Part shown: positions 4,474 through 62,665 of the stretch, piece after piece
How positions within the stretch are numbered: position 1 is the first letter of the stretch
How the letters are laid out: each line of letters begins with the position of its first letter
Source: Chiloscyllium plagiosum
Lineage: Eukaryota
Length of the DNA stretch: 64,000 bases
Assembly: GCF_004010195.1 (NCBI RefSeq)
Contig: NC_057722.1
Span: 65,789,932-65,853,931 of the forward strand
Direction: 5' to 3'
Notes under the pieces: generated by a model
Databases searched by the model: none
What the model saw: only the letters and a program-made list of their open reading frames with translations
What the model was told of the DNA's origin: nothing
Position numbers and translations under genes: made by a program

Positions 4474-4513
4474 GCAGACATTTCATCCCCTGTCTAGGTG
4501 ACATCCTCAGTGC
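4474..4513 (-). ncRNA. Minimal type-I hammerhead ribozyme motif
   Basis: Minus strand GCA-CTGAGGA-T-(GTCACCT agac AGGGGAT)-GAAA-TG-TC^-TGC. Confidence 0.7.
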
Positions 4514-4893
4514 TTGGGAGCCTCCTGTGAAGCGCTTCTGTGATCTTTCTTCCGGCATTTATAGTGGTTTGAATCTGCCGCTTCCGGTTGTCAGTTCCAG
4601 CTATCCGCTGCAGTGGCCGGTATATTGAGTCCAGGTCGATGTGCTTGTTGATTGAATCAGTTGATGAGTGCCATGCCTCTAGGAATTCCATGGCTGTTCT
4701 CTGTTTGGCTTGTCCTATAATAGTAGTGTTGTCCCAGTTAAACTCATGTTGCTTGTCATCTGAGTGTGTGGCTTCTAAGGATAACTGGTCGTGTCGACTG
4801 GGACTGAGTGGGACTTGGACCGGAAGCGGCAGATTCAAACCACTACAAATGCCGGAGGAAAGATCACAGAAGCGCTTCACAGGAGGCTCCCAA

Positions 4894-4933
4894 GCACTGA
4901 GGATGTCACCTAGACAGGGAACGAAATGTCTGC
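4894..4933 (+). ncRNA. Minimal type-I hammerhead ribozyme motif
   Basis: GCA-CTGAGGA-T-(GTCACCT agac AGGGAAC)-GAAA-TG-TC^-TGC; stem I GCA/TGC. Confidence 0.7.
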
Positions 4934-6194
4934 AACACAAACTCCCAGCTCAGCGAACAGAACCACAATAAATTAAACTATCAATCTTAGACAAAAATTT
5001 GCAAATGACAATTGTTGACTTTACAAAACCGTCCCAAACATTTTTACACTTAATTATGTGGAAGTGTTTCTTCATCTCACTTCTGAAAGACCTGATCGTG
5101 ATTCTTCTAGTGTTTGACTCCTCAACTTGCAAAATAGTTTATCTTCATTGACCCAATCAGTACTATCAGCTAATCAACCTTAACTTTGCAAATTCCAGCA
5201 AATACAACCCTCATTCATGAAATCTCTGCTGACACCTTAAACCTTGCAGTCCAGGTATCATTTTATGTTACACTACTACTCAGGCTAGTTCACCCTTCTT
5301 AATGATAGTATCTGAAACTGAGCATCATATTCTCACAGGTGTTCTAAATGAGTTTCTGTAAAGCTGTAGCATGGTTTCTTACCTCATTTATTGAATTCCT
5401 CTAGTCCATTAGGTTTCCTGATTGTTTTCTGTATTGATAATGACATTTAACTGGCCTGAACCCCCAAGTCTATTAGACCACTGTTGCTGTTATTATTTTA
5501 TCATTTAAAACTTAGCAACAACATATGTAAGAACTCTGGAATGGAAAGGGAGATTAGAGATTGACTGATAGTTTGTAATGACAGTGACTCATTCACATAA
5601 TCTATTCATATCTATCTTTCTCCTTCTCCCTTGTTCACAAGAACATGCACACAGTCGTTATTCAAATTTATAGTTACTTATGTCTGCCATCAGAGCATAC
5701 AGCATTATTGAATTATAAGGCCCATTCTCATTGCTGTTTCAAAGAATATGAGGTGATTTTATGAAAATATTTAAAGTTCTGAAGGATTTTGATATATTAG
5801 ACATTCAGAATGTTTACTTCAAGTATCTAGAACTGTGGGACACAGTTTTCAAAATTTTCTATTTAAGATGGGGAAAAGGAGACATTTGTTCTCTCAAGAG
5901 AAAGTGCGAGGGTCTGAGATGTTGATGATTGTGAAGGCTGAATTAGGCAACTGTTTGATTTACAAGAGAGTCAACGATTATTGGGAAAGAAATTGGATGT
6001 AACGCCGCAATCAAATCATCCATGGTCTTAGTGAATGGCAGACCAGGCTTGGGGGAGAAGGGCAAATGGTTCCACTCTTGCTCTGTATAATGGAAGACGA
6101 ATCCAGAATAAACATTCGCAGTCAGAATTGGAGAGGAGAGAAAGTGTTAGAAAAGTCAATTTAGAAATAAACTTTTTCTAGTTGATAATCTTAG

Positions 6195-6490
6195 AAGTCC
6201 TACAGTGTGGAAACAGCCCCTTCAGCCCAATATGTCCACATTGATCCTCCGAAGAATATCCCACCCAGACCCATTACCCTACATTTCCCCTGACTAATGC
6301 ACTGAACACTGTACATCCCTGAACACTGTAGGCAATTTAGCATGGCCAATTCACCGAACCTGCACATCTTTGGACTGTAGGAGGAAACCAGAGCAAACTC
6401 CACATAGACAGTCACCCAGGGCTGGAATCAAATCCATGGCCCTGGTGCTGTGAGGCAGCAGTGCTAATCACTGAGCTAACATGTTGCCCT
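6195..6490 (-). mobile_element. HE1-type SINE
   Basis: Reverse complement matches the copy at 39235. Confidence 0.85.
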
Positions 6491-7459
6491 AATCTTAATG
6501 TTACAGAACTTTAAGTTCTTTAAATTTCAACAGCAATTTATCAATGCCGCATTTCATAAAAATAGAGGTAATATGAGATCTGTTTATGTTGTATAATGTC
6601 ATAACAAATCAAATAAAAATGCTTCATTATATCCATTACTTCAGTTTCCTGCATGAAGAATGAACCAAAAATATTGCCATAATTTGAATGTCCTCCTCAT
6701 ACACTTGCTGAACCCCACAAGCATTTGTCCACAAATGTTGATAGTTTGCAACCATTAGCACACTTCCAGAAAGCCTCTTGCAAATTTGAACATCCCAGTG
6801 ACTTCTTCCAAATATTAGCATCCCCCCGGGGAACCTCTGCACATTCTGATAAATTTCCAAGGAGCTTAAACAAATCTTGGCTCATTCTAATGTTTAATGA
6901 TGAAAAGAGAATCAGTTTGTCAAGGGAAACGATTTTGCTGCTGCCAGTTTATTTTATTTCAATGTACACCAAAAACAACCAGTTGTGCAGCCAACAAATA
7001 CAAATGTTGAATAAATTTTATAAACTTTTTTACAGACTAGATTCCAGCCGGACTATGAATACGTTTAGGGATTTGGCTCTTCTCTTTCTGGAAAAGCAAG
7101 CAAGTTATTAAAATAACAAAAAAAGAATAATTAGACAGCAATTAGCCATATGTTCTGACATTATAGAGCAAATGTATGATTAATTGCAAGAATTGTACTC
7201 AAAAGAAGTAAGAAGAAATTTCACAACGTAGAATTAAATAAAGGGTGAAATGGTGTCTTTTGAAACTGGCTTAATGAACCTTTTTTTTGTGCATTGCCTA
7301 GTCATGTGACTGAACCACATCTCTATACTATTTTGAAATTGCTGGCATGAGATTGCACGCTAGAGCTAAACTAACTGCTGACACTGGAGTAAGAATACAT
7401 CTGATTACTAGTTTTAGAAAATCAATGGACAGATTCTTAGAGATTGGAGCAGATTGTCC

Positions 7460-9328: not shown

Positions 9329-10245
9329 TTAAGTTGATTTCTTGGGACATGTTTTAGCCATAAGATATTTCTTCGTGTTTCTTTCTGGTTTTAACAGGAT
9401 TATGTAACATTTTGGAGCAAAAATGCAGATAAGCAGACCAAAGCTTGATGCCAAAATAGCAAAGATTTCAATAGTGACAGCGTATTTTCCAGGAGAACTG
9501 ATGTAGGCTGGGACAAAAGCCAACCAAACTGCACAGAAAATCAGCATGCTAAAGGTGATGAATTTAGCCTCGTTGAAGTTATCCGGCAGCTTTCGAGCTA
9601 AGAATGCAAGGACAAAGCTCATGCAGGATAAAAGGCCGATGTAACCCAGCACACAGCAAAATGCCATCACTGAGCCTAAATCACACTCAAAAATAATCTT
9701 CTTATTGTAATATTTAGTCTGCTTTACTGGAAATGGTGAAGACACAAGGAGCCAAGCAACACAGATTACAACTTGGACAACTGTGCAGGCCAGGACGCTG
9801 AGGAGTTGCTGCAGAGTCCCAAACCATTTCATCATGTTATTGTTGGGAAGAGTGGCTCGAAAAGCCATCAATACAACCAGGGTTTTGGCCAGTACACATG
9901 AAATGCAGAGAACGAAACTGACCCCAAACAGTGTGTGCCTCAGCATGCAGGACCAGACTGATGGTTGGCCAATAAAAGTCAGCGAGCACAGGAAACAGAA
10001 CATCAATGAGATGAGGAGAAGGAAACTGAGTTCAGAGTTGTTGGCTCGAACAATTGGCGTTTTCCTGTAATACCAAAGGACCCCTGCAACAGACATTGTG
10101 CTGGCTGTTCCAAGCAAGGACACAGTTGTCAATGTGATTCCCATTGCTTCATCAAATGCGAGGAATTCAATTTCTTTAGGGATGCATTGATTTTTTTGTA
10201 GGTTGGACCAGTCTTCCAATGCACAAGGAACACAGTTCAGTGAAT
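9329..10245 (-). CDS. V2R/OlfC gene A, exon 6 (7TM domain to stop); spliced CDS 2610 nt, 869 aa
   Basis: Acceptor TCTCAG|; [62 protein letters not shown]; stop at 9329-9331. Confidence 0.97.
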
Positions 10246-11458
10246 CTGAGATAATATGAATGACATATAAGCAATTTGCAAACCACAGCAACATTAGTTA
10301 CATAGGTTTATACTTTACTACACTTTCCTTTTCACATGTTTCTCAGGTCAAAAGAATAATTTGAGTCTATTTTAAGAGTGTTGTTAGCTTTGACAAATGG
10401 TATGAAAATACTGCTGGGGAATAAAATTTGTTTCCTTTTCAAACACTCAGTTCCAGCATTGACAGGTACAACACATAATAAAATTCCCTTTGTCCTGACC
10501 CTATGCCAGTTATGCACAGCCCACAATAGCACATTAAAACATCTTTTCAGTGTTTGAGACACCTCTGAGTGAAATTGCTTTTTTGTGTGTGAATCAACAT
10601 TAAAGGAGGGGAGTTTGCAAGATAGCAGACCCACATCCACAAGGAACCAGATTGAAGATGTTTCGCCTACTCAGACAAACACCTTTCTCAACTTGACTCA
10701 AACTCTGGACTTTAACAGCCTTTCTGCTACGTAGGATATAATGCTATTTAAGATTGAATTGGATCAGTATTGGAAGAATAAAAATATCAAAGGATATTGA
10801 GAAAATGATGCACGACGTGACTAGAACTGGTAGTTTCACTTGAAGCTGTCATGGTACTGTTTGGTATGTACAAGCCTGAGTTATGGCTATAGGTGAGCTG
10901 ACAAACTAAATGTAACTTGAACTCAAAAGACTTCCACCTATGTAAACTGATGTGAGTGGTTGAGTTGTGATCTTGACCATGATTGCTTACTAGATGATGT
11001 TTTCTTTGTGCATATTTCATGAGGCTAACAGCAATATCCTTATTGTTGCCCTCGCTGTAATAAACTAACTCAACAGTGTCAAAATCCAGGCATTTTCAGT
11101 CTATACAGATCAGTGCCATACGGCATGATGCATTTATCTATGATCTTATCATTAGAAGAAGGAATCATGTTGAACAGTGGATAGTAGATCTCTTGCACCT
11201 GTGTTGATTCTTTGAAACAAGTATCTAATTAATTCCTTTCTCTCCATGCAACTTTTTCTTCTATTTCATCCATGTACCTTACTCCACTATGAAAATTGCT
11301 GTTGAATTACTTCCACCTGCCTTGTGGGCAGTGCATTCCAGATGATATCAACGCATTACAAATCACACATTTTCTGCATCTCTGCTCACATCCAATGAAT
11401 TGAAGCAGAGAATTATTTGAAGCCTAATCATGGTAACAAACAACCATGTGATGTGTAC

Positions 11459-12935: not shown

Positions 12936-13190
12936 TAAACATTAGAGATGATCAAATTTAGTTGGATTTATATCTCATTGAGAAATTGACTAACCTGTTC
13001 TTAGAATCAGTTTATTTGAATTGTCTTAAGGTTTCTCAAAGTTAAAGTTTAGAGGTAATAAAATGATTGTGGTGGATTTGCTGATCTTTAAAAGTATGCT
13101 TAGGATTTTTGATGTGACAAACATCACAAGTCTATTCTGTTCACTGGTTCTGGAATAACAAGCCTTGAAAGTGAACAAGTAATGACTTAC

Positions 13191-13329
13191 AGTCGAAAAC
13201 TGTGGTGCTGGAAGAGCATAGCACATCAACAGCATCTGAGGAGCAAGAGAGTTGATCTGCTGTGCTTTTCCAGCGCCACACTTTTCGAATCTGACTCTCC
13301 AGCATTTGCAGTACTCACTTACTCCTAAA
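13191..13329. mobile_element. Short fold-back Penelope-type insertion at the gene A exon-4 donor
   Basis: Inverted arms GTGGTGCTGGAAGAGCATAGCA / TGCTGTGCTTTTCCAGCGCCAC; 11-bp direct repeat TAATGACTTAC at 13180-13190 and 13330-13340. Confidence 0.75.
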
Positions 13330-13340
13330 TAATGACTTAC

Positions 13341-13568
13341 TTCAATTTTCCCACCAGTCCAGATGATCATTTTTTCATTTAGGACAAGGTCATGGCCTGA
13401 ATCTGAAGTTGCATCAAAATGTCCCACGTGCACAAATTTGATCGAGCCGTTTTCATTCTTCTGCCAGTTGACAATATCATATGTTGCAACACTGTCACCA
13501 TTATCATCAAAATAGACCTCTTCTCCCAATTTACTGGTGTATTTTACTTCTTTCAAGTAATGTAAGAG
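13341..13568 (-). CDS. V2R/OlfC gene A, exon 4
   Basis: Acceptor CACTAAG|; LLHYLKEVKYTSKLGEEVYFDDNGDSVATYDIVNWQ...IIWTGGKIE; donor GAA|GTAAGT; 228 nt, same length as gene B exon 4. Confidence 0.93.
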
Positions 13569-17210: not shown

Positions 17211-17492
17211 ATTCTTCTGACAAAGTTCAGGTCAAGGCATGCATGCAGGTTCAAGTGAAGCTGACTTGTGATCAACATACATATTTTCAACTCTCTACTT
17301 GTCATTACATTGTAGTCTAACTTGTAGTATTTCTCTGCTTCTGACAGTTATTCCACATCCTTTGTCAGCCATGTTATCTAATCTAATAGATAATAGCATG
17401 ATCTTTTTCAAACATAAAATCAACAGGATTTAAACTGATGTAGATAGGTTCTGCTTCTTCTGGCTCCTCTGGGTCAGCCAGTTCCTCTAGAT

Positions 17493-17709
17493 CTGAAAAT
17501 GTGTTGCTGGAAAAGCGCAGCAGGTCAGGCAGCATCCAGGGAACAGGAGAATCGACGTTTCGGGCATAAGCCCTTCTTCAGGAATTAAGAAGGGCTTATA
17601 CCCGAAACGTCGATTCTCCTGTTCCCTGGATGCTGCCTGACCTGCTGCGCTTTTCCAGCAACACATTTTCAGCTCTGATCTCAAGCATCTGCAGACCTCA
17701 CTTTCTCCT
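17493..17709. mobile_element. Young fold-back Penelope-type insertion (gene A intron 2)
   Basis: Near-perfect inverted arms of about 87 bp; 14-bp TSD CAGTTCCTCTAGAT at 17479-17492 and 17710-17723; nearly identical to the element at 48455. Confidence 0.85.
17550..17585 (-). ncRNA. Minimal hammerhead ribozyme motif, sense to the gene A pre-mRNA
   Basis: ATTC-CTGAAGA-A-(GGGC ttat GCCC)-GAAA-CG-TC^-GATT; core intact, stem I weak. Confidence 0.6.
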
Positions 17710-18924
17710 CAGTTCCTCTAGATACCTTGGTGTCTTCACCAATTAAGTTATCAGGTCAAATGCAGATATCTTTTCTGCTTGTGAGACATTGTTGTTCCTG
17801 CAGCACTGACATTGGGTTTTAGCAGGAGTTGTTTGTTTTCTCGGTGTAGATCTGTTGAATGCCTCTCTGGAATGATAAAGCAAATAATATTTTTGCCCTC
17901 TTGAGGTAATGTTTGTTTTCCCCTCTCAAGATCTCTCTCAGGGCTGTAAGTCATTTTTGTTTCTCTTTTTAGCAGGCTTTGAAAAACTTTGTCTAAAGTT
18001 AAATTTTCCGTGGACTGTAAAAAATCTGACACAATTTCATCAAAAGTCCAACAATATTTCTATATCACGTGAATCCTGTTTTCAAAGTTCCAAACCATAG
18101 TTTTTGTTAATATGTAGGGGTGCCATTCATTAAATTGTCTACAATATTCTCCTGGAAGCTGAATTCATTTTGTTAATTTTGCTCATTTGAGAATTATATT
18201 TGTTCTTAAATTGAAATAACTATCAAAAGCTTTAAGATATCTTCAAACCTGTTTGAAAACTCTTTAGTATTTTACCTAATAAAGTATTCTGCATGGATAT
18301 AAAAGTGGACTTAACTAACTTAAATCTCAGTGTTCAAATCTGAGGCAATGCTATATCTTAAAAACTGTCATGCACATGAAATCCAATCTTATGCACTCCA
18401 TGGCCCATCTCTGACTTTGAATCTGTTATGAAGAATGATCCATATTTTGCTCATCTTGCTAATTATTTTTTACCGTGCAGCTTTAAATCTGTACTGTTTC
18501 AGCATTGCTTTAAACTTGCTCTTTCATATGTTTGTCTTCTGATATTCACCAACGCTTTTTCAATTGAATCACTGTTGACTTACTAAACTCTGTCCTATGG
18601 CCTTCGTAAGTCTTCCTAATAAAATTGTGGCTTAATTATTGAGTCCTGGCCCCTTAAAATAATTTTTATTTTCAAATTTCCCTTCTTCTATTAAACATTC
18701 TAGATTTATTTCTTAAAGCTTGTTAATTTTCAGTTAATTCTGAAGCCTTTCTGATTCTATAGCCCGGGTCTAAATTTCTTTTCTGGCCCTTTCACTATTT
18801 CTTTCTTCAAAGACATGTAAAAGAAATTCTCTTTCAATAAAGAATGTTATTTGTGGGAGTTTGCTGAGAAGAACACTGCTTTCAGAGTTAGCATCAATGA
18901 CTAGTCATTAAAAGTTATTGTACT

Positions 18925-18943
18925 CTAACCCTAACCCTAACCC
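18925..18943 (+). repeat. Short telomere-type repeat (TAACCC)3
   Basis: CTAACCCTAACCCTAACCC. Confidence 0.7.
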
Positions 18944-21194: not shown

Positions 21195-22676
21195 AGTAAA
21201 CAGAAGTAGGAGTAGGTCATTCAGCCCTTTGAACCTGCTCTGGGCAATCAGTATGATTATGGCTGCTCAGTGCCCTGTTCCTGGATTAGCCCCATACCTT
21301 TTGATCCCTTTAGCTCGAAGAACTATATCTAATTTATTTTTGGAAACATTCAATGTTGTAGCCCTTAATGCTCTTTGTGCCTGAGAATTTCACAGCTCTT
21401 TACTCTCTGAGTAAGAAATTTCTCCTCATTTCAATCCTAAATGGCCTATCCGTTATCCTTATACTTTGACTATGAGGAACTTTTGAGGACTCTGTGACTA
21501 TACTTGATGGAATTTAGAAGGATGAGATTGATCTAATTGAAACTTACAGAGTACTGAGTGGCCTGGACAGAATGGATGTTGGGAAGAAGTTTCCAGTGCA
21601 AGGAGAAACTAGGACCCGAGGGCACAGCCTTAGAGTAAAGGGAAGATCTTTTAGAATGGAGATTAGGAGAAACTTCTTCAGCCAGGGAGTGGGTGAATCT
21701 TTGTAATTCATTGTCATAGAAGGCTGTGGAAGCCAGATCATTGAGTATATTTAAAACTGAGATAGCTAGGTTCTTGCTTGTCAAGGGGATCAAGGGTTAC
21801 AGAGAGAAAGCGAGAGAATGGGATTGAAAAACTTATCAGCCATGATTGAATGGCGGAGTAGACTCAATGAGCTGAATGGGCTAATTTCTGCTCCTATGTC
21901 TTATGGTCTTCTGTTCTTATGGACCCCTGATTCTATGCTCCTCAGTCATCAGAAACATGCTTTCAGCATTTACGCTGTCTAGTCCTGACAGAATTTTATA
22001 GGTTTCTATGAGATCCCTCTCACTTTTCTAAACTCCAGTAAATATAGTCGAAAACAATCTAGTGTCTTTTGATATATCCTGCCATCCCCAGGATCAGTTT
22101 GGTAAACCTTTGTTGCACTCCCTTCATAGCCAAAACATCCTTCCTTAGAGAAGGAGACCAAAACTGCCCTATACAATTATAGTAAGACATCCATTCACTC
22201 AAATCTTCTTGCTGTGAAAACCATGTACTATTTGCTGTCTTCACCACTTGCATACTTATTTTCAGCAATTGGTGTATGAGGATACTTAGGTCTTATTGTA
22301 TCTCTCTTTTCTCAATCTATCAGATATAATCTGCCTTAATCTGCCTTAATATAATAAAACAAAGAACTATGGATACTGGAAATTTGAAACAAAAATAGAA
22401 GTTTCTAAAGAAACTTAGCAGGTCTGGCAGTATCGGTGGAGAGACAGCAAAGTTAATATTTCGGTTTCAGAGACCTTTTTTCAGAAGCTAATGGTCTGCC
22501 TTTCCTACTTTTGCTACCAAAGTGGATAATCTCATGTGTCTACATTGTATTTCACTGCATACATTTGCCCACACACTCACCTTGTCCAAATCACACTGAA
22601 GCATATTTGCATCCTCCTCACAGTTCACCCTCCCACTCAACTTTGTATCATCTGCAAACTTGTTGAGTGTTCCCAA
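21195..22676 (-). mobile_element. CR1 LINE 3' fragment with a nested plus-strand CR1 end (about 21500-21910)
   Basis: NKFADDTKLSG, QFWSPSLRKD on the minus strand; opposite-strand insert with its own TCTTATG tail. Confidence 0.85.
22350..22488 (-). mobile_element. Penelope-type terminal fragment with decayed hammerhead, nested in a CR1
   Basis: Same terminus as the other copies (AGCAGGTCTGGCAG); minus strand TT-CTGAAAA-A-(AGGTC..AACC)-GAAA-TA-TT-AAC. Confidence 0.6.
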
Positions 22677-23929: not shown

Positions 23930-25110
23930 GGGTTCACTGTTCCTGTTTCTGGAGAAAAGTCCACTGACTCGCATAAACATCTTAACTACACTTTCTTATA
24001 CTCTGTAGTCTGAAGGGACTCCACTCTTTTCTGCCAGTTTCCCTTTCTCCATCATGCTACCTTCTACAGTGGTGCGTCTGGCATCATGTATTCTTGTTTC
24101 TCAATTGAGAAAACTGCCTCTTCCCACTTTAGTTGACAAGGCCCTTGATCCAGTCCAACCCATTGCCTGCACTTTTGTCCTTACAATTACCCCTCCCTTC
24201 CAAAACCAGAACTGGGGTCTGCCTGGTCCTCACATTCTTCTCCAAATTCAAAGGATCATCCTCTGCCTTTTCTGCCATAGCTAGCACGATGTCACCACTA
24301 AAAAGATCTTCATCTTTCGATCCCCGACAACATTCTGTAGGGAGTATCCTGTCTGCAACATTCTGTCCATTCTTCATCATTTCTATATAATGCAAGAAGT
24401 TACCCTCTTACCTCCTCCCTCATCATTAACCAGGCACAGAATAATCCTTCCAGGTGAATAGTGATTTTTTTTATGTCTTTCAATTTCAAAGATATGTATT
24501 CACTGTCTCAATACAGTTGGGGAGATCAAATGATAGGTTGTGTGACCACTTTGCAGAGCATGTCTATTCAGTCCACAAGTCCAAACTCAAGTTTCTAGTT
24601 GTTTCACATTTCAATAAATCATCTCAATTTTATGCTGACATTTTTGTCTTCAGTCTGCTGCAGTGTGCGAGTGAAGCCCAATGCAAGCTAGAGGAATAGC
24701 ATATAATTTTCCAATTAGGTATTTTATGCCCTTGTGGACACAACATGGAGTTCAACATCCTCAGGCAATGAACTTGATCTTCCAGTTTGAATTTCTTTAA
24801 CAAGTACCAGTCTGTACCTTGTTCTCACATTTTCTCTTTTGCAGAGCTACTCTGGACAACTGCTCTTCTTTTTATTACCATTGTTGCCAATCTAATTCTC
24901 TTTTGTTCAATGACAGGTTTAGTATTTAAACTTCTCATCTTCGAAACAATCCACCATACCCCACTTTTTGGTTTTGTTCAATCTTTTTTCCAACAACATA
25001 AAACCCATCATGTTTCTACCTCTCTTCAGTTCAGACTCAAAACATTAAATCTGTTTTTGCCTCCACAGATGCCACAAGACTGGCTGAGTTTTCCCAGAAT
25101 GTTCTGTTAT
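23930..25110 (+). mobile_element. Old degraded Penelope-like element (RT end, GIY-YIG region, terminal repeat)
   Basis: Decayed coding-like segments such as LGRSNDRLCDHFAEHVYSV and CASEAQCKLEE, followed by the terminus CCACAGATGCCACAAGACTGGCTGAGTTTTCCCAG. Confidence 0.65.
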
Positions 25111-25713
25111 AATTCCTGGGCAACTCCAGTGAACATTTTCCATAAATGTATAATTTGATCTATGAGGCTACAAAGTAGGAAATTTTCCTTTACCTGGTGT
25201 TTAACATTATGATAGTGATAATGCCTAATGTTCCAAGAATCTTATGATTACACATAACTAGATGAAGTATAGGACAATATTGGTAAGTTATTATGATTGT
25301 ATATTATTAAGCATTTTAGCTATATTATCATTGAGTCAAAGAAACTTTATGCTCATAGCCTTTAATTTTCTACTTCCTCACAAAACTACTTGTCCTCACC
25401 ACATTCCCATACTATCACATGCACATATTTTCTCCTTTGATGTGGCAACTGGCCTAGATTTAATAATCATATGTAATAAGATTTCATACCCTAACAATCC
25501 AGTTGACAGAATAAAAACATTCTAACTTCATGTTCTTATAGATATATAAATGCTTGGTTGCATTTGTAAAATTGAAATGTTATCTTACAGCTTGTGTTGA
25601 TTTAGAAAATATCAATAATTTTTGAAAATATTTTCAATGATTATTAACATTTAGCAATCATCTGAGGTGATTTCCAGTTTAAAAACAAAAGGCATCATCA
25701 GATTCTGACTTAC

Positions 25714-25980: not shown

Positions 25981-26956
25981 CACTCACTAGATTAGTTAGT
26001 GCCAAGTGAATTGATGGTTGATTAAATATTGCCAGCAAATGCTACTGCAGAGCTCAACAGTACCCAAGCCACTAAATCTTCCATACCTCATGGGAATAGA
26101 TATTACCTGAAGAATTCACATTATTATGGTTTATATATCCATGGATAAGGGCAATGAAAACTTGTCTTTGTCTGAGTCATATCTTGTAAACTAAGAGGTA
26201 AGAGCCTCTGCCTTCTCCCCAGAAGGCTGAGTAGGCTTACACAATGCGCAACTGAATCATAAAGTCAGGGACCCACAATTGCCTCTGCATTGAATTCATT
26301 AACATTAACCAACACTGTAGCTGCCCAGGAAGGTGCACATTTTCATTATGATCCACTCCTCTTTTAAAAACACTGCAAAGCATTTCAGGCAAAATGAATT
26401 GACTTTCTTTTTCACCACAGTGACTTATTATTTAGGCTAAGTTGTCATTTTGCTGCCATAAGTTTCCTTGATAGCTCACTGGACTCAAAAAGTTAATTTT
26501 GAATCCTTTTCAAAGGGGAGGTTCTTAAAAATAAGGAAGTCCAGAGATAATCTTAGAAAATTTGCAATGTTCTAAGATTTTTGTCCACTTGCAGTTTCGT
26601 ATTATTTTAGACTGTGAGAATGCTGTCTCATTATATATCTGATCTATGCGTTTCTGATTGCATTTGTGTAAATTTAAAATGATAGCATAGTTTTTTTCTT
26701 GAGCATTTTACCTCATCAGCACTTCACAGGACCACTGCAATTACAGCAAAGAAAGACAAACATAACAACATCATGCAAATGCCATCATCTCAAGGTCTGT
26801 CCAGATCAGAAAGCAATCTCACTGCTCTATGCCATCGATCCATCATCATTACTATCTCAAAATCTGGGAATTCCTAACCGAACTCCAACGCCACGTGATG
26901 GTTCAAAGAAATAATCACACCACTAACTTACAGTGCAACTAGTGGTAAACAATCAA

Positions 26957-27154
26957 GGAGCAAATTACTGCAGATGCTGAAGTCTGTACTGAAAACAATC
27001 AATGCTGGAGATTGCAGTGGGTCAGGCAGCATCCATGGAGAGAAGGCAAGCTAACGTTTTGAGTCTAGATGACTTTTCATCAGCTATGAAGAGTCATCTA
27101 GAATTGAAACATTTGCTTGCTCTCTCTCCACGGATGCTGTCTGACCTGTTATGA
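26957..27154. mobile_element. Fold-back Penelope-type insertion, third family
   Basis: Inverted arms meeting near 27085; 11-bp TSD TAAACAATCAA at 26946-26956 and 27155-27165; decayed hammerheads with stem II GAGTC atcta GACTC. Confidence 0.8.
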
Positions 27155-27794
27155 TAAACAATCAATGCTGCTTTGCAATTCATTGAGAACACAAATTTTA
27201 GCAAAGCTGTAATTATTTCACTACAGTCAGCATGGAACTGGTGAAGACCCTGTTCTGTTCTGTACTGGTCTATATCCTGGAAATTAGGACAATTGATCCT
27301 AACTGTATGCCAGCGTATGACAGATATTCCTCCAGGCAGATACATCTCATTAAAGTACCTCTGCGAGAAAATGGTTAAAATTTTGAACAGATTGTACAGA
27401 CTAAGCTTGTTCTCCCTCAAATATGTAAGATTAATTGACCAATTTAAGCTGAAAAGATTTAGCAAATAAATAGAAATAAACTTTTTTGTTGGTAAGTGTC
27501 CATAACATGGGGGAATATCCTTAGAGATAGATCAATCAGGAGTGTTTTCAGGTGGAATCTGTTCACATATTATTGGAAATCTGGAACCATATCCTCTTAA
27601 AGCTATTGAGGTTGTGGCACATCAATTTAAAATTTCAAAACTGAAATTGAGTTTTGAGAGGTAAATGTAGTAGAGGTTGTTAAGATCCAAGCTGATAGCA
27701 ATACTAGACAACTCAGATCCCAGAATTAAACTTGGCTTTAAATATCTTATATATTTATTGTTTGGAATTGGTCAATATGGTGATTAGTCCAAAA

Positions 27795-28085: not shown

Positions 28086-28920
28086 CCTACAGACAGCAGT
28101 TACTGACTTACTGCAGTTTTAGCTCTTAGCAGACCTGCATGATGAATTCGCATTCAATTCACGTAACAGCCCATTGTTAAATCTCTTATCAGTTCCTGTT
28201 ATCTTCAACTTTATCCAACATTTCCTCCTTTTTGATCATATCTACTGGGTTTGCCCATAAATCTAACAGCCGAAAATATCCCAATTGGAACGACTTGAAG
28301 AAATTTCAAAGCTTTTCTGGCTGGCAAAATTCACACGCCAGAAGCTAATTTTACTGATGAGATTCATACCCATGAACTGAATGGAAAAACTTCATTTTTT
28401 TATCATTAATTCATAGCATGTGGGTGTCACTGGTTGAGCAGATTTAGCAGATCAATTGAAGGTAGATGTAAAAGCAGGATCCTGTAAGGATGAGATTCTT
28501 CAAGTGAATGTACACTTAAAATTAGGAGATAGGAAACCTGAAATTAGGTTATCACAGCTGAAATTAACTACGATTGAGTTAGAGATGATAAAACCATACT
28601 TAGAGAGGAAAAGAGAAATGAAAATAGTTGAATTAGAAGATCATGAAAATAGAACTGTGGAGATTAATGGAATGAGAGGATAATGAAAAACCAGAAAATA
28701 TCAGAAAGAGAGCAGGAAATAAAACAATCAATAACACAAAGAGAGAAAGAAAGTTAAAAAGAAATGCAATTATGAAAACTTGAACTCTAAATGGATAAAG
28801 GAATTGAAGAACATGAGTTAGAAAGAGAAAAGCTTGGAACAAAGAGGAAAGAAGGAGGTGGGAGCTCCTGCAAAGATTCTAATTCAGTTGAGGGACAAGA
28901 AAGAAAACGAAAACATTTGT

Positions 28921-29124
28921 TAAAAATCACACAACACCAGGTTATAGTCCAACAGGTTTAATTGTAAGCACTAGCTTTCAGAGCTTTCAGACATAACCAC
29001 CTGATGAAGGAGCAGCACTCTGAAAGCTAGTACTTCCAATTAAACCTGTTGGACTATAACCTAGTGTTGTATTATTTTTAACTTTGTACACCCCAGTCCA
29101 ACACCGGCATCTCCAAATCATAAG
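28921..29124. mobile_element. Fold-back Penelope-type insertion, fourth family
   Basis: Arms GTTATAGTCCAACAGGTTTAATTG / CAATTAAACCTGTTGGACTATAAC; TSD ACATTTGT at 28913-28920 and 29125-29132; hammerhead motif at 28998-29032. Confidence 0.8.
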
Positions 29125-29283
29125 ACATTTGTGGAATTTTCAAGGGAGAAAGGAATGCTGTGGGATCAGCAGTTTAGCTCATGTACACTAGAGGAAAGTT
29201 TTGATAATGGAAGGAAAATTGTAATCATGGAAAAATTCTGAAATAGCGAAGTTAAAACTTATTTAGATGAATGTCAAGTATTC

Positions 29284-38296: not shown

Positions 38297-38429
38297 CTTT
38301 GTGTAGAAATCAGAGAATATGCTTCCTGTTATACTTATAGCCAGTATTTAAAGTCAACATGAAACTCCAGTAAGGCTGCCACTGACTCATACATCTGAAA
38401 TAGTCATAGGTGTCATTTATTTATTGACA

Positions 38430-42427: not shown

Positions 42428-42560
42428 AGATCAGAGTTTAGATCAGAGTGGTGCTGGAAAATCACAGCAGGTCAGGCAGCATCCGAGGAGCAGGAAAATC
42501 GACGTTTCGGGCAAAAGCCCTTTATCAGGAATATAGGCAGGAAGCCTCCAGGGTGGAGGG
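42428..42560 (-). mobile_element. Penelope-type terminal fragment in gene B intron 2, with no long inverted arm
   Basis: Related to the 17493 and 48455 copies; hammerhead motif at 42497-42532 (minus) with variant core CTGATAA. Confidence 0.75.
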
Positions 42561-42809
42561 ATAAAATCAGATTATTTCAATGCTATTTCATATTGTCCCT
42601 GAACCCATTGCACATAAAGGGCCAAATGTATTTCACAAATATTTTCATCTCTTGGTTTTAAGTATTCATTATTGTGCAGATACCAAAGAACAATGTAGAA
42701 TGCAGAATTGATCTAATTAAATCTTTCTACATTCAATTTCACAGATTTGATGAATGGTTTTCTTTTTTCATGTTCTCTTCCACCACTTGTGAAAATACAG
42801 CTCCAAATT

Positions 42810-45073: not shown

Positions 45074-45716
45074 CAATAAGGATTGTTCTTCCAATATATC
45101 TAACCTAATAGGAAGGGTTTGGAGGGATGTGGGCCGGATGCTGTCAGGTGGGACTAGATTGGGTTGGGGTATCTAGTTGGCATGGACGGGTTGGACCAAA
45201 AAGTCTATTTCCATGTTGTACATCTCTATGACTCTATGGTAGACATAGAAACACAAATTACTTTGGTAAATAACTCATGCATTTGACATAATTTGCGAAG
45301 TAGGTTTACTTTTTTTGATGATGTCATGTCCTGTTTTCTTCTTTGATGGTAAGTATTAATATGAAGAACCAGGAAGCAGAAATTCAATTTACCTTATTGG
45401 TTGCTAGACAGAAGAGTATTTTCGAGTAGGAAATAATCTGAATCTTCTGAACCAGTTGCTCCCGAAGGTCTGGATCTTTCCTCCTTAATACATAGCTGAA
45501 CACAATGGCAACACCATCACAATATTGATGAATCGTTGTGACCACTAAATAGTGGATAGGTTTTAGGGTGTCTGGAGATGGATTACCTACCTCAGAAATG
45601 TTCTGAACTGTTCTTGTAGCTACAATATTTACATGAGTAGTCCAGTTACGTTTCTGGCCAGTCATCATGATCTTGATGGAAAGTGTGTGTTGGGAGTCAA
45701 CTCCACCTTTTTCAAG

Positions 45717-45835
45717 GGTCTAGATTAGATTGATGCTGGAAAAGCACAGCAGGTCAGGCAGCATCCGCTGAGCAGGAAAATCGACGTTTCAGGCAAAAGC
45801 CCTTCATCCGGTTTCCAGCATCTGCAGTCTTCACT
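45717..45835. mobile_element. Short Penelope-type insertion with short inversion
   Basis: 15-bp TSD TCCACCTTTTTCAAG at 45702-45716 and 45836-45850; decayed hammerhead on the minus strand. Confidence 0.8.
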
Positions 45836-45859
45836 TCCACCTTTTTCAAGCCATTTTAT

Positions 45860-47720: not shown

Positions 47721-48454
47721 CAATACCTCACCAATATTATCAAAACTACTGAATTTCATTTAACTCATTAACTCATTATTGTAGTATTGTTGGTTCTTGA
47801 AGAATTAATTGCTCTTTTCACTTATATGAATTTTATACTTAACAAAATATTATTTTAAATAAAATAGAGAAAAAAGGACTAAATGCAAACTAAAGACATT
47901 GCTTTGACTTTAAAAGTTAGAAATACCACACCTATTCACCAACTGGCACTTGCATCATATTGTGGTTCATTATGCCTTGAATATCAGCTTAAATATTGAT
48001 GCTAAAGACCCTGGATTTGGGTTTTTACCTGTAATTTGTTCATTCTGAAGCAATTGCACACCTACTGAGCAACAGATTTTAGTGTTTGATACTCAGGACA
48101 GCAGTCCTAAGGAAGAGCTCTTCAATGTTTCTGGCACATGGCAGGAGGTGGCAGCCATGTTGCAGGACATTATGTCCAAATGTAGTTTCAGTGATGTTGT
48201 ATCCTTCTGCCATTGGTTCTAAGCAATTGTGCTCAAGAAAATGGATTCCATTTGCCATGTGGGCATAAAACCATTATTGTTATTTAGACTGATTGAAATA
48301 GAAATAGAATAGAAATAGGCAAATATGTTTTTCCAATGCTTCTCAATGTATCTGCAGCCTTTGACAAAGTTTATCACAGATCATTCACCTCCAATGTCTC
48401 CCTACTATCACCCATCTGGTTAGGACCACTTTCACTTGGCTCCATCTTTATATG

Positions 48455-48677
48455 GGGAGAAAGTGAGGTCTGCAGATGCTGGAGATCAGAGCTGAAAATG
48501 TGTTGCTGGAAAAGCGCAGCAGGTCAGGCAGCATCCAGGGAACAGGAGAATCGACGTTTCGGGCATAAGCCCTTCTTCAGGAAAGGTTCCTGAAGAAGGG
48601 CTTATGCCCGAAACGTCGATTCTCCTGTTCCCTGAATGCTGCCTGACCTGCTGCGCTTTTCCAGCAACACATTTTCA
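48455..48677. mobile_element. Young fold-back Penelope-type insertion
   Basis: 95-bp inverted arms (48489-48583 and 48587-48681, one mismatch, 3-nt loop); 16-bp direct repeat GCTCCATCTTTATATG at 48439-48454 and 48678-48693. Confidence 0.88.
48587..48621 (+). ncRNA. Minimal hammerhead ribozyme motif (mirror copy at 48549-48583, minus)
   Basis: TTC-CTGAAGA-A-(GGGC ttat GCCC)-GAAA-CG-TC^-GATT. Confidence 0.6.
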
Positions 48678-48849
48678 GCTCCATCTTTATATGTCTAGCC
48701 ACAGCCAGAGAATCACTTGGGTTGCTTTCACTTTCTGTTCCTGCAACTTTACAGTTGGTGTTACCCCAAGATTTGATGATTTGGCCCCTGCTAGGTCCTA
48801 TTTTGATGTTGCGCCTCAGTGACACAACCCAAAACCCATTTTTCTGTTT

Positions 48850-51453: not shown

Positions 51454-51984
51454 TGACAGGAGGAAATGACACCATGCGAAAACTCTGGCAGAGAGAGAGA
51501 GAGAGAACTCAAGCATTTTACTGTAGATGGGAGAGATGTATGGCAAGTTCAAAACCCCAACAATGACTGAAAACTAAACTAAAACCCTGGCTCTGTGGAA
51601 GCCTAACTCCACCCATTCATGCTGATTCTATTGTTCCAACTTTTAAAAAAAAGGTCTCAGAAACTGTTTGGTTTATTGGCTTGCTAGAGATTGCTCAGTA
51701 CCTTTGTCTCAATCTCTTTTCATAAAAAACACCAGGCCAGAATAAACCTCTTAAAGCAATCGTCAACAAGTTCTATGTGGTTGATACATCTAAACCTCTT
51801 CCAGAGGTCCCCAGCATCTCAGATGTCATCAGTCAATTCAATTCATTCTGCATGATATGAAGAAATGTTTTGAGGCATTGGATATTGTAAAGGCTATGTA
51901 CCCTGACAACATTATGGTAACAATAATGAAAACCTTTGGTGCAGAATTTATCACACCTCGAGCCATTTAAAAAAAAATCACAGA

Positions 51985-52272: not shown

Positions 52273-52274
52273 CT

Positions 52275-53185: not shown

Positions 53186-53187
53186 TC

Positions 53188-53487: not shown

Positions 53488-55035
53488 TTCTAGAAGGAAT
53501 GAAAGTAGGCAAGTCCCCTGGGCCAGATGGGATTTATCCAAGGATTCTCTGGGAAGCTAGAGTGGAGATGACGGAGGCTTTGGCTTTGATCTTTGAGTCA
53601 TCATCATCTACAGGTTTAATACCAGGGGACTGGAGGATTGCAAATGTTATGCCCTTGATCAAGAAGGGCAGTAGAGATGACTCAGGTAATTATAGACCAG
53701 TGAGCCTTACTTCTGTTGTAGGAAAAGTTTTGGAAAGGAGTATAAGAGTTAGGATTATAATAATCTAACAAACAACAATTTGATTTCAGATAGTCAACAA
53801 TGGTTCTGTCAAGGGCAGATCGTGTCTCACAAACCTCATTGAGTTTTTAAGAAGGTGACCAAGCATGTAGATGAGGATAGGGCAGTTGACGTGGTGTACA
53901 TGGACTTCATTAAAACCTTTGATAAAGTTCCACATGATAGGCTGATGGAGAAAATGCAGAGGCATGGGATTGAGGGTGATTTAGCAGTTTAGATTAGAAA
54001 CTGGCTTTCTGAAAGAAAGCAGCGAGTGGTGGTTGATGGAAAATATCCAGCCTCGATCTGGTTACTAGTGGTGTGCCAGAAGGGTCTATTTTGGGACCAC
54101 TGCTGTTTGTCATTTGTTTAAGTGACTTAGACGCAGGCATAAGTGAATGGCTTAGTAAGTTTGCAGATGACACCAAAGTCAGTGGAGTAGTAGACAGTGT
54201 GGAAGAATGTTACAGGTTGCAGGGGGACTTGGATAAACTGCAGGATTTGGCTGAGAGGTGGCAAATGGAGTTCAATGCAGCTAAATGTGATGTGATTCAC
54301 TTTGGGAAGAATAACAGGAAGGCAGAACATTGGGTCAATGGAAAGATTCTTGGTAGTGTGGATGTGCAGAGGGATCTTGGAGTCCACATACACAGATCCC
54401 TGAAAGTTGCCACCCAGGTTGATAGTGCTGTTAAGAAGGCGTATGTTGTGTTAGATTTCATTGGTAGAGAGATTGAGTTCTGGAACCATAATGTCATGCT
54501 GCAACAATACACAATGCGAGTGTGGCCGCACTTGGAATATTGTGTGCATTTCTGGTCGCCCCATTACAGGAAGGATGTGGAAGCATTGGAAAGGTGCAGA
54601 GGAGATTTACCAGGATGTTGCCTGGTCTGGAGGGAAGGTCTTATGAGGAAAGGCTGAGAGACTTGGGTCTGTTCTCATTGGAAAGAAGAAGGCTAAGAAG
54701 GGATTTGATAGAGACATACAAGATGATCAGAGGAATAGAGAGGGGAGACAATGAAAGTCTTTTTCCAAGGATGAGGACGTCAGCTTATACGAGGGGGCAT
54801 AACTACAAATTGAGAGGTGATAGATTTAAGACAGATGTCAGAGGCAGGTTCTTTACTCAGAGAGTGGTAAAGGTGTGGAATGCCCTGCCTGCCAATGTAG
54901 TTAACTCAGCCACATTAGGGAGATTTAAACAATCCTTGGATAAGCACATGGATGATGGTGGGATAATGGAGGGGGATGAGCTTAGATTAGTTCACAGGTT
55001 GGCACAACATTGAGGGCTGAAGTGCCTGCTCTGTG
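53488..55035 (+). mobile_element. Continuation of the same CR1 LINE (RT to 3' tail)
   Basis: MKVGKSPGPDGIYPRIL follows directly from EQLLSI at about 51000; NYRPVSL, PEGSILGPLLF, KFADD; tail GTTCTATGTTCT. Confidence 0.92.
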
Positions 55036-58899: not shown

Positions 58900-59100
58900 A
58901 TAAAAGCAGAAAATGCTGCAAGTATTCAGTAGGTCATGTAGCATCCCTGGAAATAGGTGCAGAGTTGACATTTTTGGTTTATCTTTCATCAGACTGAGAA
59001 AAATAGAAAATCCAAGAGGTTTTAAGCTAATGAAAGGAGGAGGAAAACTGGGGGAGGGGGCTAGGTGTGGATAGAAATAAAACAAAAGAGCAAGTATGTG
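58900..59100 (-). mobile_element. Old Penelope-type terminal fragment
   Basis: AAAAGCAGAAAATGCTG..TCAGTAGGTC..GCATC terminus; minus-strand CTGATGA..AAAATGTC remnant. Confidence 0.5.
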
Positions 59101-60359
59101 ATAAGGTCTAACGCAGAACTGATTAAATGTCAAAATCATTTGTCATCCAGTACTGAAGGGACTGATAATGGGACAAATTAAAAATCAAAATTAATATGTC
59201 CATACAAGTTGCGTGTGGCAGTTTGATGAACAGCAACAATCTCAAAAGAAACAAAATAGAGAAGTCACAGAATGCTCTGATTACAACATTGCCTCTGAAT
59301 GTGGTCTTGTTAAGCACCATTGTGAGGGTTATGATGAATGTATTGTCCTTGGAACTTGAAAGAGGAAGCAAGTATGTTTACCATTTTAGTACAATTTCCG
59401 GTCATATCGAACATTTTGTGGACATTTTCTGTTGCCTCTTTTGCAAGCCCGCTCCCTTTTCTAGATAGTCTTCTTGTTCTCAGCAAATCACTTCAAGAAC
59501 TTTTAATTGTCAACTTCACCAACCAAATTTCTACTCAGCTACTTACACCCTTTAATATCACCTTGTGGTCATCTCTGGTCAAAGCAGAGAAACTTATTCT
59601 CTGTGGCTTCATTGACAACTGAGTCTGACAAATCACCAGGCATCAGTTCTGTAGTGATAATTGTCTCCACAACTACAAGCATTTGCATAGGTGACCAGAA
59701 TTGGACAAGATATTCAAAGGTGGACAAGGTCAATGCAACTGGAGGATATGGTATCTGAAATTGGAAATGGGAAAGGGAAGAACACCCTGGGCAATTGCAC
59801 TGTAAGCTCATAACATAGCCTGTTTAGTATTCAGTCCTACTCACTTCAGTAGTACAGAATGCTGGGTGTACCTTATGCCGGCAAAAGCAGTTCCGGAGTT
59901 TACTGTCACAGTCCATGTCCAATTTCAAAATCAATGCATTTAAAAAAAAAATGTGTACCGCACCAGTTTAGAATTTATCATTCAATAATTAATTTGTTTT
60001 TGTTGTTTGGTACTCTGCAGCCCATGCTAAATCAGCTTTCTATTCTCATTGAAATATTTTATTTCACCTCATGTCTTTGATTCCATCTTGTTTTAGATGA
60101 AACAAAAATGCATGTTATAATGCTTGTTAGTGCTTTAAGTACCACACGGGTTGATTAATAAGCTTGTACTTAAAACTGCCTCAGGCACCATATAATGATT
60201 CATTTGTCTTTCCATTAACTGTAGATCGACAATAGCACTGTTTAATTGCTCATTATATCAAAAATATTTTGTTTAATTGCTTTTATTACAAATTTAAAAC
60301 ACAAGTCTATAGCTTAACAAATATATAAACCTGAAACAAACCTGTAAAATACTCAGTAT

Positions 60360-60840
60360 AGGAGCAAATCACAGCAGATGCTGGATCTGTATTGAAATAA
60401 GAAGTGCTAGAAATCATAGTAAGGCAAGGACCATCCGTGGAGAGGGAACAAACTAATGTTTCAAGTCGAGATGATTCTTTATCAGAGCTGAGATGAAGTG
60501 TGGAGGGAGTAGTATTTTTACAATAGATGGGGAGTGGGGAGTGAAAGGGTACTAATTGTGCAGTTTAAGTGAATGAGTATATGAGAATGGCAGGACAATG
60601 ATGTGGCCAACGTTCAAGTGGAAAGAACAGATAGTCCCTCACTCCCCCATCTGCATTTCATAGGGACCATTCCCTCTGGGGCATTCTAGTCCATTCCTCA
60701 ATGACCACCAATACCACCTGTCCGCCCCACAGCACCTTCCCATGTGACCATAGAAAGTGCAACACCTGCCCCTTCACCTCCGTCCTGCTCACCATCCAAG
60801 GGCCTAAACAGACTTTTCAGGTTAAATTCCATACCTCCTC
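60360..60840. mobile_element. Penelope-like (Neptune-type) fragment with inverted terminal arm
   Basis: Minus arm of the same family as 26957 with a decayed hammerhead near 60452-60488; plus-strand peptide FPCDHRKCNTCPFTS...IQGPKQTFQV, the Cys linker preceding GIY-YIG in Neptune PLEs. Confidence 0.75.
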
Positions 60841-61039
60841 CCATCTGGTATCAAAGCGAACTGAACCTTTGACGCTCCTGTTTATATCTGTCAGCCAGGG
60901 ATCCCTGATTGGACCAGATTAACAGCCCCAATCAGGGACCTCTTATTCTGTGAGGTCACCTGGTTGACCCCATTACAATAAGGAACAAAGAACCAGCAGA
61001 GGAATTGAATAAGTATTTTACATCAGGATTATCTTCAGG

Positions 61040-61692
61040 CTAACATGCAAGGTCAGTTGACAGTTTGGAAGGCAAATGCAATGTTAGCATTCATTTCAAG
61101 AGGACAAGAATAGCAGAACAGAGGTATACTGCTGAGGCTGGTCTGATTTATTTGTAATGTTGTAGGCAGTTTTGGACTCTGTATCTAAAGAAGGATATGC
61201 TGGCATTGGAGGGCGTCCCAGGGAGGTTTACAAGAATGATTCAGGGGACAAAAAGCTTGTCATAGGCAGAGTGGTTGTGGACTCTGAGTATCTACTCAAT
61301 GAAGTTGGGGGATCTCATTGAAACTTACAGAATATTGAGAGATTTGGAGTGAGTGGATATGGAGAAGATGTTTCCACTAGTCGGAGAGACTCGGACTCAA
61401 AGACACAGCCTCAGCATGAAGAGACAACCTTTTAGAACTGAGATGAGGAGGAATTTCTTCAGCCAGAGGGTGGTGAATCTGTGGACTCATTGTCACAGAA
61501 AGCTGTAAAGGCAAAACCATTGAGTCTATTTAAAACAGAGATGGATAGGTTTGTGGTTAATAAAAGTTCAAAGGTTATGGGGAGAAGGCAGGAGAATAGA
61601 GTGGAGAAACATATCAACCATGATCAAATAGTGGAGCTGACTCAGTGAACTGAATGGCCTAATTCTGCTCCCATATTTTATTGTCTTATAGT
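61040..61692 (+). mobile_element. CR1 LINE 3' fragment
   Basis: FFSQRVVNLW and GDLIETYRIL remnants; TCTTAT tail. Confidence 0.8.
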
Positions 61693-62446
61693 CTATGGAT
61701 AACATGTATTTCAGATTTGGATAGACATCTGACTGCAGGGCATTAAGGGCCACTTCCACAAAAAAGAGAAACTCCAATAGGGAAATTCACCCACCTAAGT
61801 GTGTATTCCTGATTACCTTTAACACATCATTGATGGTAGCATTTTGATACAATCTCTGGAAATTCCTCTTTAGAGTTTCCTTTCTCTCCTTACCTGTTAT
61901 CATTTATGATCCTCCTTCGAAACTATCTCTTTGGCCAGGTTTTTGGTCACCTGTTCTAATGTTGCCTTACATACTTTGATGCCAATTTTGTTTTAATAGT
62001 GCTTATTTGAAGTGGATTGGGATGTTCATAGTGCTATTTAAATGCAAGTTCCATTTGTTGTAGTGCTTATTGTTAGCTCATAGGCAGGCATCACATCAAT
62101 TTCTAATTGATAGAATAAATTGGTAGAAAATCATGTAAGTACATGCAAGTTATGCCATTGTGTGCTGCTGGTGGGCGAGACTGCATCATGAGATTTAGAA
62201 AACTTTGTGCTATCCATGCATCTGAAGTTGAATTGCACCACCTTCATTCTGAAGTGGGTCTATAACTTCAATCTAATTATATTTACATAAACTTTTTAAA
62301 TACTTTTATGAGAGATGGACAACTCTGACAAGATCAACATTTATTGTTCATCGCTAATTGCCCTTGAAGGTTAGAGTTAGGGTTAACAAAACTGGATAAA
62401 AGTCTAAAATTGGGTAATTGGATGGAAAATAATTCTGCTTTGGAAA

Positions 62447-62665
62447 GTTAAAAATCACCAAGTTATAGTCCAACAGGTTTAATTGGAAGCACGCTTACTT
62501 TTGGAGTGCCACTCCTTCATCAGGTGGTTGTGGTCCACAACACCTGATGAAGGAGCAGCCCTCCGAAAGCTAGTGCGCTTCCAATTAAACCTGTTGGACT
62601 ATAACCTGGTGCTGTGTGATTTTTAACTTTGTACATCGGCCAACACCGGCATCTCCAAATCATGA
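62447..62665. mobile_element. Fold-back Penelope-type insertion about 670 bp upstream of gene C
   Basis: Same family as 28921; 12-bp TSD CTGCTTTGGAAA at 62435-62446 and 62666-62677. Confidence 0.85.
62541..62575 (+). ncRNA. Minimal type-I hammerhead ribozyme motif, fully intact
   Basis: CAC-CTGATGA-A-(GGAG cagcc CTCC)-GAAA-GC-TA^-GTG; stem I CAC/GTG, palindromic stem III AGCT. Confidence 0.78.

Follow-up and report, generated by a model that had tools for sequence, protein, structure and literature searches.

The window considered here is a 64,000-nucleotide stretch of the genome of the shark Chiloscyllium plagiosum (NCBI RefSeq assembly GCF_004010195.1, contig NC_057722.1, positions 65,789,932 to 65,853,931, forward strand). 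Scattered along it, many in head-to-head pairs, are short repeats with a minimal hammerhead ribozyme motif. Hammerheads are already known from the terminal repeats (pseudo-long terminal repeats, pLTRs) of Penelope-like elements (PLEs; Cervera and de la Pena 2014, PMC4209133), and it is to PLEs that these repeats belong. They are probably best understood as type I hammerheads in truncated PLE repeats of at least three lineages, most copies likely being inactive by-products of uncut element RNA.

A strict descriptor (CTGANGA, stem II of at least 3 bp, GAAA, a short palindromic stem III, TH, and stem I of at least 2 bp) matches the window five times; 100 dinucleotide shuffles average 0.02 matches and never exceed one. 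The core C3 lies at 17581 (-), 29001 (+), 48580 (-), 48590 (+), and 62544 (+); 29001 qualifies only via a G-U pair. Homology search finds 15 copies of four families, plus five older remnants. Family A is represented at 17550 and 48587, with an older subfamily, A2, at 42436 and 45718; family B at 29001 and 62541; family C at 4474 and 4894; and family D at 27050 and 60460. The copies, and the fragments of element genes that go with them, are as follows (pairs are given without a strand):

4387..4979: family C (Poseidon-like) head-to-head insertion, minus arm tailed and plus arm tail-less, in a 12-bp target duplication (4387-4398, 4968-4979)
4474..4513 (-): family C minimal hammerhead, decayed, with CpG changes in stems II and III
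4497..4808 (-): C-terminal part of a family C GIY-YIG endonuclease, 86% to the reverse transcriptase-endonuclease frame of locus L207; the family C hammerhead overlaps its final codons and stop codon
4894..4933 (+): family C minimal hammerhead, decayed, stem III ACGT changed to ATGT; by comparison with locus L202, the element's likely start codon is at the base of stem II
13180..13340: old head-to-head pair of family A type, hammerheads lost, 11-bp target duplication
17479..17723: family A pair, 14-bp target duplication; intact minus-arm hammerhead (C3 at 17581), plus arm tailed and cut inside the hammerhead core
26946..27165: family D pair, 11-bp target duplication, both hammerheads decayed
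28913..29132: family B pair, 8-bp target duplication; near-intact plus-arm hammerhead (C3 at 29001), minus arm beginning within stem II
42436..42565 (-): family A2 solo pLTR end with a TATA-like box, core mutated (G8 to A)
45702..45850: family A2 pair, 15-bp target duplication; minus-arm hammerhead decayed, plus arm only tail
48439..48693: young family A pair, 16-bp target duplication, arms of 95 bp and 99% complementary; both hammerheads intact, placed back to back (C3 at 48580 - and 48590 +)
60359..60498 (-): old family D pLTR end, decayed hammerhead
60644..60850 (+): Neptune-type reverse transcriptase-endonuclease linker remnant, 49% over 72 aa to locus L248, inverted relative to the adjoining family D copy
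62435..62677: family B pair, 12-bp target duplication; intact hammerhead at 62541-62575 (+), minus-arm hammerhead decayed (C3 at 62523)
215..331 (+): old A/D-lineage remnant
22352..22486 (-): old A/D-lineage remnant, decayed hammerhead
25026..25118 (+): old A/D-lineage remnant, with a same-strand GIY-YIG fragment upstream at 24511-24756
58912..58995 (-): old A/D-lineage remnant, decayed hammerhead

A preliminary description, made from the window sequence, had reported about a dozen copies of such motifs in at least four dissimilar Penelope-type families. The minimal hammerhead anatomy holds, and every stem it named was found in place. Its count was an underestimate, and its families are fewer: B and C are indeed separate, but A (17550/48587), A2 (42436/45718), and D (27050/60460) have 3' flank sequence in common, so that there are three separate lineages, A/A2/D, B, and C. 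The palindromic stem III is seen in intact family C motifs at other loci (L202 and L088; L numbers denote stretches of the same genome outside the window), but the C copies of the window itself (4510 -, 4897 +) have lost it. Similarly, the D motif, described with a GAGTC/GACTC-type stem II, becomes visible when D copies are compared, but no D copy in the window is intact. Scanned against Rfam at E up to 5, the window matched no hammerhead family; the only matches were sub-threshold ones to microRNA hairpins, an effect of the inverted arms; "mostly unannotated", as the population had been called, is accurate for Rfam, which is what the comparison covers. A tandem repeat search of the window found no head-to-tail, retrozyme-like arrays.

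At the genome scale, the descriptor has 38 matches in 778,096 sampled bases and none in any of five shuffles. The 3.56-Gb assembly contains 46,297 exact matches to a 28-letter pattern covering two A subfamilies, and none to the reversed control. In 120 evenly chosen 10-kb stretches, all from large contigs, there are 57 descriptor matches, or 1.7 x 10^5 intact motifs by plain scaling (bootstrap 1.2-2.2 x 10^5) and 1.2 x 10^5 when scaled by the exact count, the sample over-representing the exact motif. The genome thus likely holds over 100,000 intact motifs, in line with the very large number that had been predicted. The 293 homologous copies in the sample, of which the 57 are the intact ones, correspond to 6-9 x 10^5 in the genome. 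Long PLE copies often abut gaps in the assembly, and are therefore undercounted; the window has a 500-base gap at 29284-29783.

The motif consists of the core CUGANGA ... GAAA ... UH, with an extra base between positions 9 and 10.1 (A in families A, B, and D; U in C) and a closing pair, G10.1-C11.1, present in all families. Loop 3 is absent, and the palindromic 15.1-16.1 segment is ACGU in A, C, and D and AGCU in B. The expectation of a fixed core with altered stem pairs is supported by eye across three lineages: pair 10.2-11.2 is G-C in A and B, U-A in C, and A-U or G-U in D; 10.4-11.4 occurs as C-G, G-C, A-U, and U-A; and 2.1-1.1 as C-G, A-U, and U-A. In A1, stem I has two pairs and then a U-U mismatch at the third. 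The proposed covariation of the stems is found between source families, but not among genomic copies.

Core and flank were compared in families A and B, the family C flank window having run into the tail-less end. None of the 10 non-CpG core sites has a common variant in A or B; in family A, common variants are present at 13 of 58 sites in the flank and 3 of 5 in the loop. By individual differences, family A has a better-conserved core than flank (16/490 vs. 396/2842, or 16/490 vs. 219/2842 for rare differences only), but family B does not (13/240 vs. 65/1008, p 0.66), so the predicted advantage of the core stands for one family of the two. CpG sites, among them those of the stem III palindrome of A, C, and D, decay fastest. 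The pattern fits selection in source elements followed by neutral decay in copies.

Every family sits downstream of a gene, or gene remnant, for reverse transcriptase (RT) and GIY-YIG endonuclease, which identifies the repeats as pLTRs of PLEs; an origin that the preliminary description had already named is now shown by genes linked to the motif. In L248 (family A) and L216 (family B), RT, a C-X4-C-X2-C linker, and endonuclease lie upstream of the motif. In families A, B, and C, the RT and the C-terminal GIY-YIG share one reading frame. L202 (family C) is a whole pLTR-ORF-pLTR unit (ORF, open reading frame), with two hammerheads 2.5 kb apart and a frame that begins at the base of hammerhead stem II. 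Family D is represented by endonuclease fragments only, upstream of copies in L109 and L111. Pfam RVT_1 is matched in L248 (2.5e-7) and L207 (8.3e-7), and weakly in L216; GIY-YIG has a Pfam match for family A only (L248, 3.2e-4, below the Pfam cut-off), and was recognized from motifs in B and C. Mutual identity of the A, B, and C proteins is just 27-29%. A CX2-5CxxC linker between RT and endonuclease is present in the A and B frames and in the 60644-60850 remnant, and absent in C; a linker before GIY-YIG marks Neptune or Nematis types (PMC8557442). Judged by sequence, the carriers of A, D, and B (three families) are elements with a Neptune-type linker, and that of C is Poseidon-like. Direct pLTRs from a partial tandem occur in L202 and L205 (both family C); among the loci fetched there were no whole direct-pLTR units of A, B, or D.

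Some further variety was seen among these elements. Four loci (L132:6946-6987, L284, L293, and L191) have a second Poseidon-like subfamily, with a 6-bp, fully paired stem II. In two others (L246:879-2443 and L252:1042-2244), the 3' untranslated/endonuclease end of family A has expanded into short tandem arrays without a hammerhead. In L007:1400-1640 and L110:1360-1623, a family B copy runs straight into an A or D copy in the same orientation; either nested insertion into pLTRs or template switching between families could produce such junctions. In the window, the old remnants at 24511-24756 (+) and 60644-60850 (+) are of Neptune-type endonuclease and linker, respectively.

Ends and pairs were analyzed for 148 usable copies out of 207 for family A and 68 out of 71 for family B, with positions counted from the hammerhead core. 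A head-to-head partner was found for 66 of the A and 40 of the B copies, the pairs often lying inside 8-19-bp target duplications. The 3' ends are bimodal, some 35 nt apart, near +92 and +126 in A and +87 and +123 in B; in PLEs, the "tail" is the segment between two RT start sites (PMC11167929). The pair table has 70 rows, about six of which reuse a copy: 59 combine a tailed with a tail-less arm, three a tailed with a decayed arm, and eight have no tail. Exactly one tail is therefore present in 62 rows, and two tails in none (13.7 expected, P 2e-7). A target duplication of at least 8 bp flanks 46 of the 70, compared to 2 of 70 controls. Different copies have different palindrome centres, and a long, endonuclease-bearing arm may be on either side. 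An inverted pLTR with a one-sided tail and a target duplication is a known PLE signature (PMC3846280, PMC8557442).

The 5' ends bear on which RNA was copied. Most copies extend upstream of the cut site (137/148 in A and 60/68 in B, or 197/216), and most were likely made from the uncut front end of element RNA. Short copies favor one boundary: 44 of 113 in family A start within 3 nt of -4, vs. 11 in the preceding 20 nt, and 20 of 56 in family B within 3 nt of -8 (the limit being -8 or -9), vs. one in the preceding 20 nt; in family D, 7 of 25 copies start at -4. In public data on L017, the same boundary is the top 5' loose end, with 67 contigs (X15) and 91 reads (X19, a single-cell poly(A) library, in which neither 5' nor cleaved ends can be seen). 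In A, A2, A3, B, and D, the boundary is preceded by a TATA-like box that starts 30-33 nt before it.

Many copies have an extra G at this boundary. Genome-wide, family A copies starting there are preceded by G in 830 cases and by A or T in 524, where the background ratio is 0.40. Of the first 20 boundary copies with G inspected by eye in this family, none is long, and in 14 neither partner nor target is a source for the base. An extra G was found at 25 of 38 boundary ends vs. 57 of 197 other ends; with partner-templated cases removed, the figures are 8/17 and 19/100 (p 0.017). Reverse transcriptases can copy an RNA cap as an extra base. As for the RNA's own 3' end, 552 of 1,797 mapped family B reads from poly(A) RNA have a poly(A) tail at +57 or +60, which is 12-15 nt after ATTAAA, before a GU-rich stretch, and upstream of both RT starts (+87 and +123). 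Boundary, extra G, and family B poly(A) site together suggest run-off copying of a capped RNA 5' end, in the manner of retroviral strong-stop DNA. The poly(A) site also has a possible consequence for the host: with a used poly(A) signal in the pLTR (L048:1564-1567, corresponding to +57/+60), dispersed family B copies could end host transcripts.

Several results weigh against this account of the template. Family C has no 5' pile-up (seven of nine sampled copies are long), and its TATA box is at -53. In 6 of the 20 family A cases, target or partner could supply the G, and an exact-walk control for the extra G was weak (8/13 vs. 23/56, p 0.15; "Aalt", B, and D rows were excluded because of false ends from subfamily differences). 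The family B count (531 G vs. 109) is confounded, since the partner could supply the G in 14 of 20; a hand count of partner-incompatible contexts, 11/100 for the 531 and 35/100 for the 109, leaves about 58 to 38. No site of many RNA starts or ends was found, in a poly(A) library unsuited to show one. Seven family A copies start at +28 to +30, the cut site, where about 1.9 are expected (p 0.004), so a minority of templates may be cut, although subfamily differences could also produce this excess. Finally, the Penelope promoter of D. virilis is internal and TATA-less (PMC2377424), and the promoter reading may therefore not be general.

In its strongest reading, the preliminary description would imply a large working population of dimer-type ribozymes, cutting host or element transcripts. 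This now looks improbable. The 1.2-1.7 x 10^5 motifs intact by descriptor speak for it, as do the better-kept family A core, the seven copies starting near the cut site, and the presence of motifs in poly(A) RNA (some 1,700-1,800 reads per family in 2% of one run); but intact copies are a minority of those sampled, family B core and flank differ equally, the window lacks tandem arrays, A1 stem I has only two pairs before its mismatch, and poly(A) reads cross the family B cut site without a step in depth. A transcript through the pair at 48455-48681 is predicted to form one hairpin of -203 kcal/mol (z -26.9), excluding the hammerhead fold. Two further computations count neither way: monomer folds of five motifs had z of +0.5 to -1.8, with stems I and II partly recovered, and in co-folding of two copies the lowest-energy form was not the hammerhead dimer. 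In published work, minimal PLE hammerheads cleave poorly even as dimers (PMC4209133), eight of nine Xenopus dimers failed to cleave (bioRxiv 2026.07.22.740005), and the anole motif requires the protein (PMC11167929). About half of the copies are head to head, with their one sense motif locked in a hairpin and no tandem partner. With paired arms forming one hairpin and 197 of 216 copies reaching past the cut site, an active ribozyme population is unlikely.

The 5' pile-up could conceivably also be an RT stop at the folded hammerhead, or the pairs a product of fold-back self-priming on an antisense template, a route proposed for head-to-head junctions (Arkhipova et al. 2013, PMC3846280). Small palindromes and fillers are common at pair centres, and the boundary falls on the 5' strand of stem I. 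Its position, however, which is -4 for A and D and -8 for B, follows the TATA spacing and not the stem. Fold-back would yield arms ending alike, where the observed ends are at two different fixed sites, and solo copies adjoining their own target duplication (L305, L307) show the same start and untemplated G. Either version is given little credence here.

Least credible, by a small step, is movement of the short head-to-head units as non-autonomous elements, resembling miniature inverted-repeat transposable elements (MITEs) or retrozymes: their very high number, near-constant size of about 200-240 bp, duplications flanking the whole pair, and 17 copies 100% identical over 95 nt would suit such units, but the centre varies per copy, either arm may be long with endonuclease, the PLE tail makes the arms unequal, retrozyme-type head-to-tail arrays are lacking, and short copies, without a TATA-like box, could hardly launch RNA of their own. 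A MITE proper, as a DNA transposon derivative, is ruled out by the unequal arms, variable centre, and RT-endonuclease parent, and a non-LTR retrozyme by pairs that are head to head, with no head-to-tail hammerhead array in the window.

If most copies are by-products of uncut, capped RNA, they might arise as follows. The element protein, as a dimer, would cut both target strands with a stagger of about 12-16 bp. Each target 3' end would then be extended, one from each of two RNA start sites some 35 nt apart and both near the RNA 5' end; synthesis of both cDNAs would continue up to the capped 5' end, where hammerhead stem I begins, and the two would be joined head to head. Published work (PMC11167929) reports that RT starts at two internal sites, that both strands are cut and extended, that the main substrate is uncut RNA, and that cleavage is protein-assisted. 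Selection would keep the motif in active source elements, where the hammerhead may cut only with protein help or at a late step, and copies would decay neutrally. Long copies would need either read-through tandem RNA (Frangieh et al.) or a jump to the RNA 3' repeat, and the data fit either.

The second of these routes leads to a broader proposal, offered tentatively: that the Penelope pLTR works like a retroviral U3-R-U5 repeat. Just upstream of the hammerhead would be the TATA box and start site; cap and poly(A) site would bound an R-like segment containing the hammerhead; and the two target-primed RT starts would belong to a U5-like segment present only at the RNA 5' end. The first cDNA would accordingly stop at the cap, like a strong-stop product. 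Long copies would come from a jump to the R segment at the RNA 3' end; where the jump failed, short hammerhead doublets would be left, in their hundreds of thousands. What the ribozyme would then affect is the jump or the turnover of transcripts, rather than formation of the template's end.

As to their surroundings, the PLE copies of the window sit between exons of class C G protein-coupled receptors. The window is a cluster of such genes, of the vomeronasal type 2/calcium-sensing kind (7tm_3 and ANF_receptor matches), with segments, all on the minus strand, at 9332-10297, 13029-13580, 15398-16267, 30714-31649, 37946-38347, 40745-41611, and 43509-43994. Frame fragments at 35026-37053 (-), 49379-50038 (+), 51104-51508 (-), and 54037-55010 (+) are presumably from CR1/L2-type long interspersed elements, and many repeats elsewhere in the window we take to be short interspersed elements derived from tRNA.

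As a ribozyme discovery this is ordinary; its value is as a data set. How PLEs transpose and what the hammerhead does in the process are stated to be open questions (PMC8557442, PMC11167929), and a genome with 10^5 intact motifs and 6-9 x 10^5 related copies offers a sample large enough to reconstruct the cycle from insertion ends: the RNA end used as template, its cut or uncut state, and the pairing of the two RT starts with the two target strands. Through the paired copies, long hairpins are also plentiful in host introns and 3' ends, and family B contributes a poly(A) site that is in use. A literature search on shark hammerheads, and on cap, start site, poly(A), and strong-stop in PLEs, found no paper covering these points in sharks, most subscription papers and the repeat databases being outside its reach.

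The motifs agree with the minimal PLE hammerheads of PMC4209133 in the type I core, extra base before stem II, G10.1-C11.1 pair, palindromic 15.2-16.2 without loop 3, and location in pLTRs, and in having many families per genome, mostly as single or opposite-strand copies. They differ in number, exceeding the ~4,000 of coelacanth and ~9,000 of Xenopus (counted with another descriptor), and in the shorter stems of family A (stem II 4 bp, stem I 2-4 bp); the parts of that paper compared name no cartilaginous fish. Animal non-LTR retrozymes, reported from one cartilaginous fish, are likewise pLTR-derived and non-coding with a type I hammerhead, but form head-to-tail tandem arrays (bioRxiv 10.64898/2026.07.22.740005), whereas the copies here are solo or head to head. 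The C-X4-C-X2-C linker before GIY-YIG in A and B, and the inverted head-to-head pLTR with a 30-40-bp tail at one end, are as in Neptune and Nematis endonuclease-bearing PLEs (PMC3846280, PMC8557442). TATA and initiator-like motifs have been noted in a rotifer pLTR (same sources). Unlike those examples, most arms here are 90-135 nt, the one-tail rule has been counted (62/70), and duplications are mostly 10-16 bp rather than the 8-10 bp of the rotifer examples.

The whole family C unit of L202 is laid out like the anole Poseidon element PAc (Frangieh et al. 2024, PMC11167929), in which the frame also starts at the base of stem II, 26 nt from the cut site as compared to 28 nt in family C. There too, two RT starts define the tail, both strands are extended, and the template is uncut RNA. 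Unlike in that account, the family B poly(A) site lies upstream of both RT starts, and where a multi-copy mRNA template was proposed for PAc, the genomic ends described here point to a capped 5' end.

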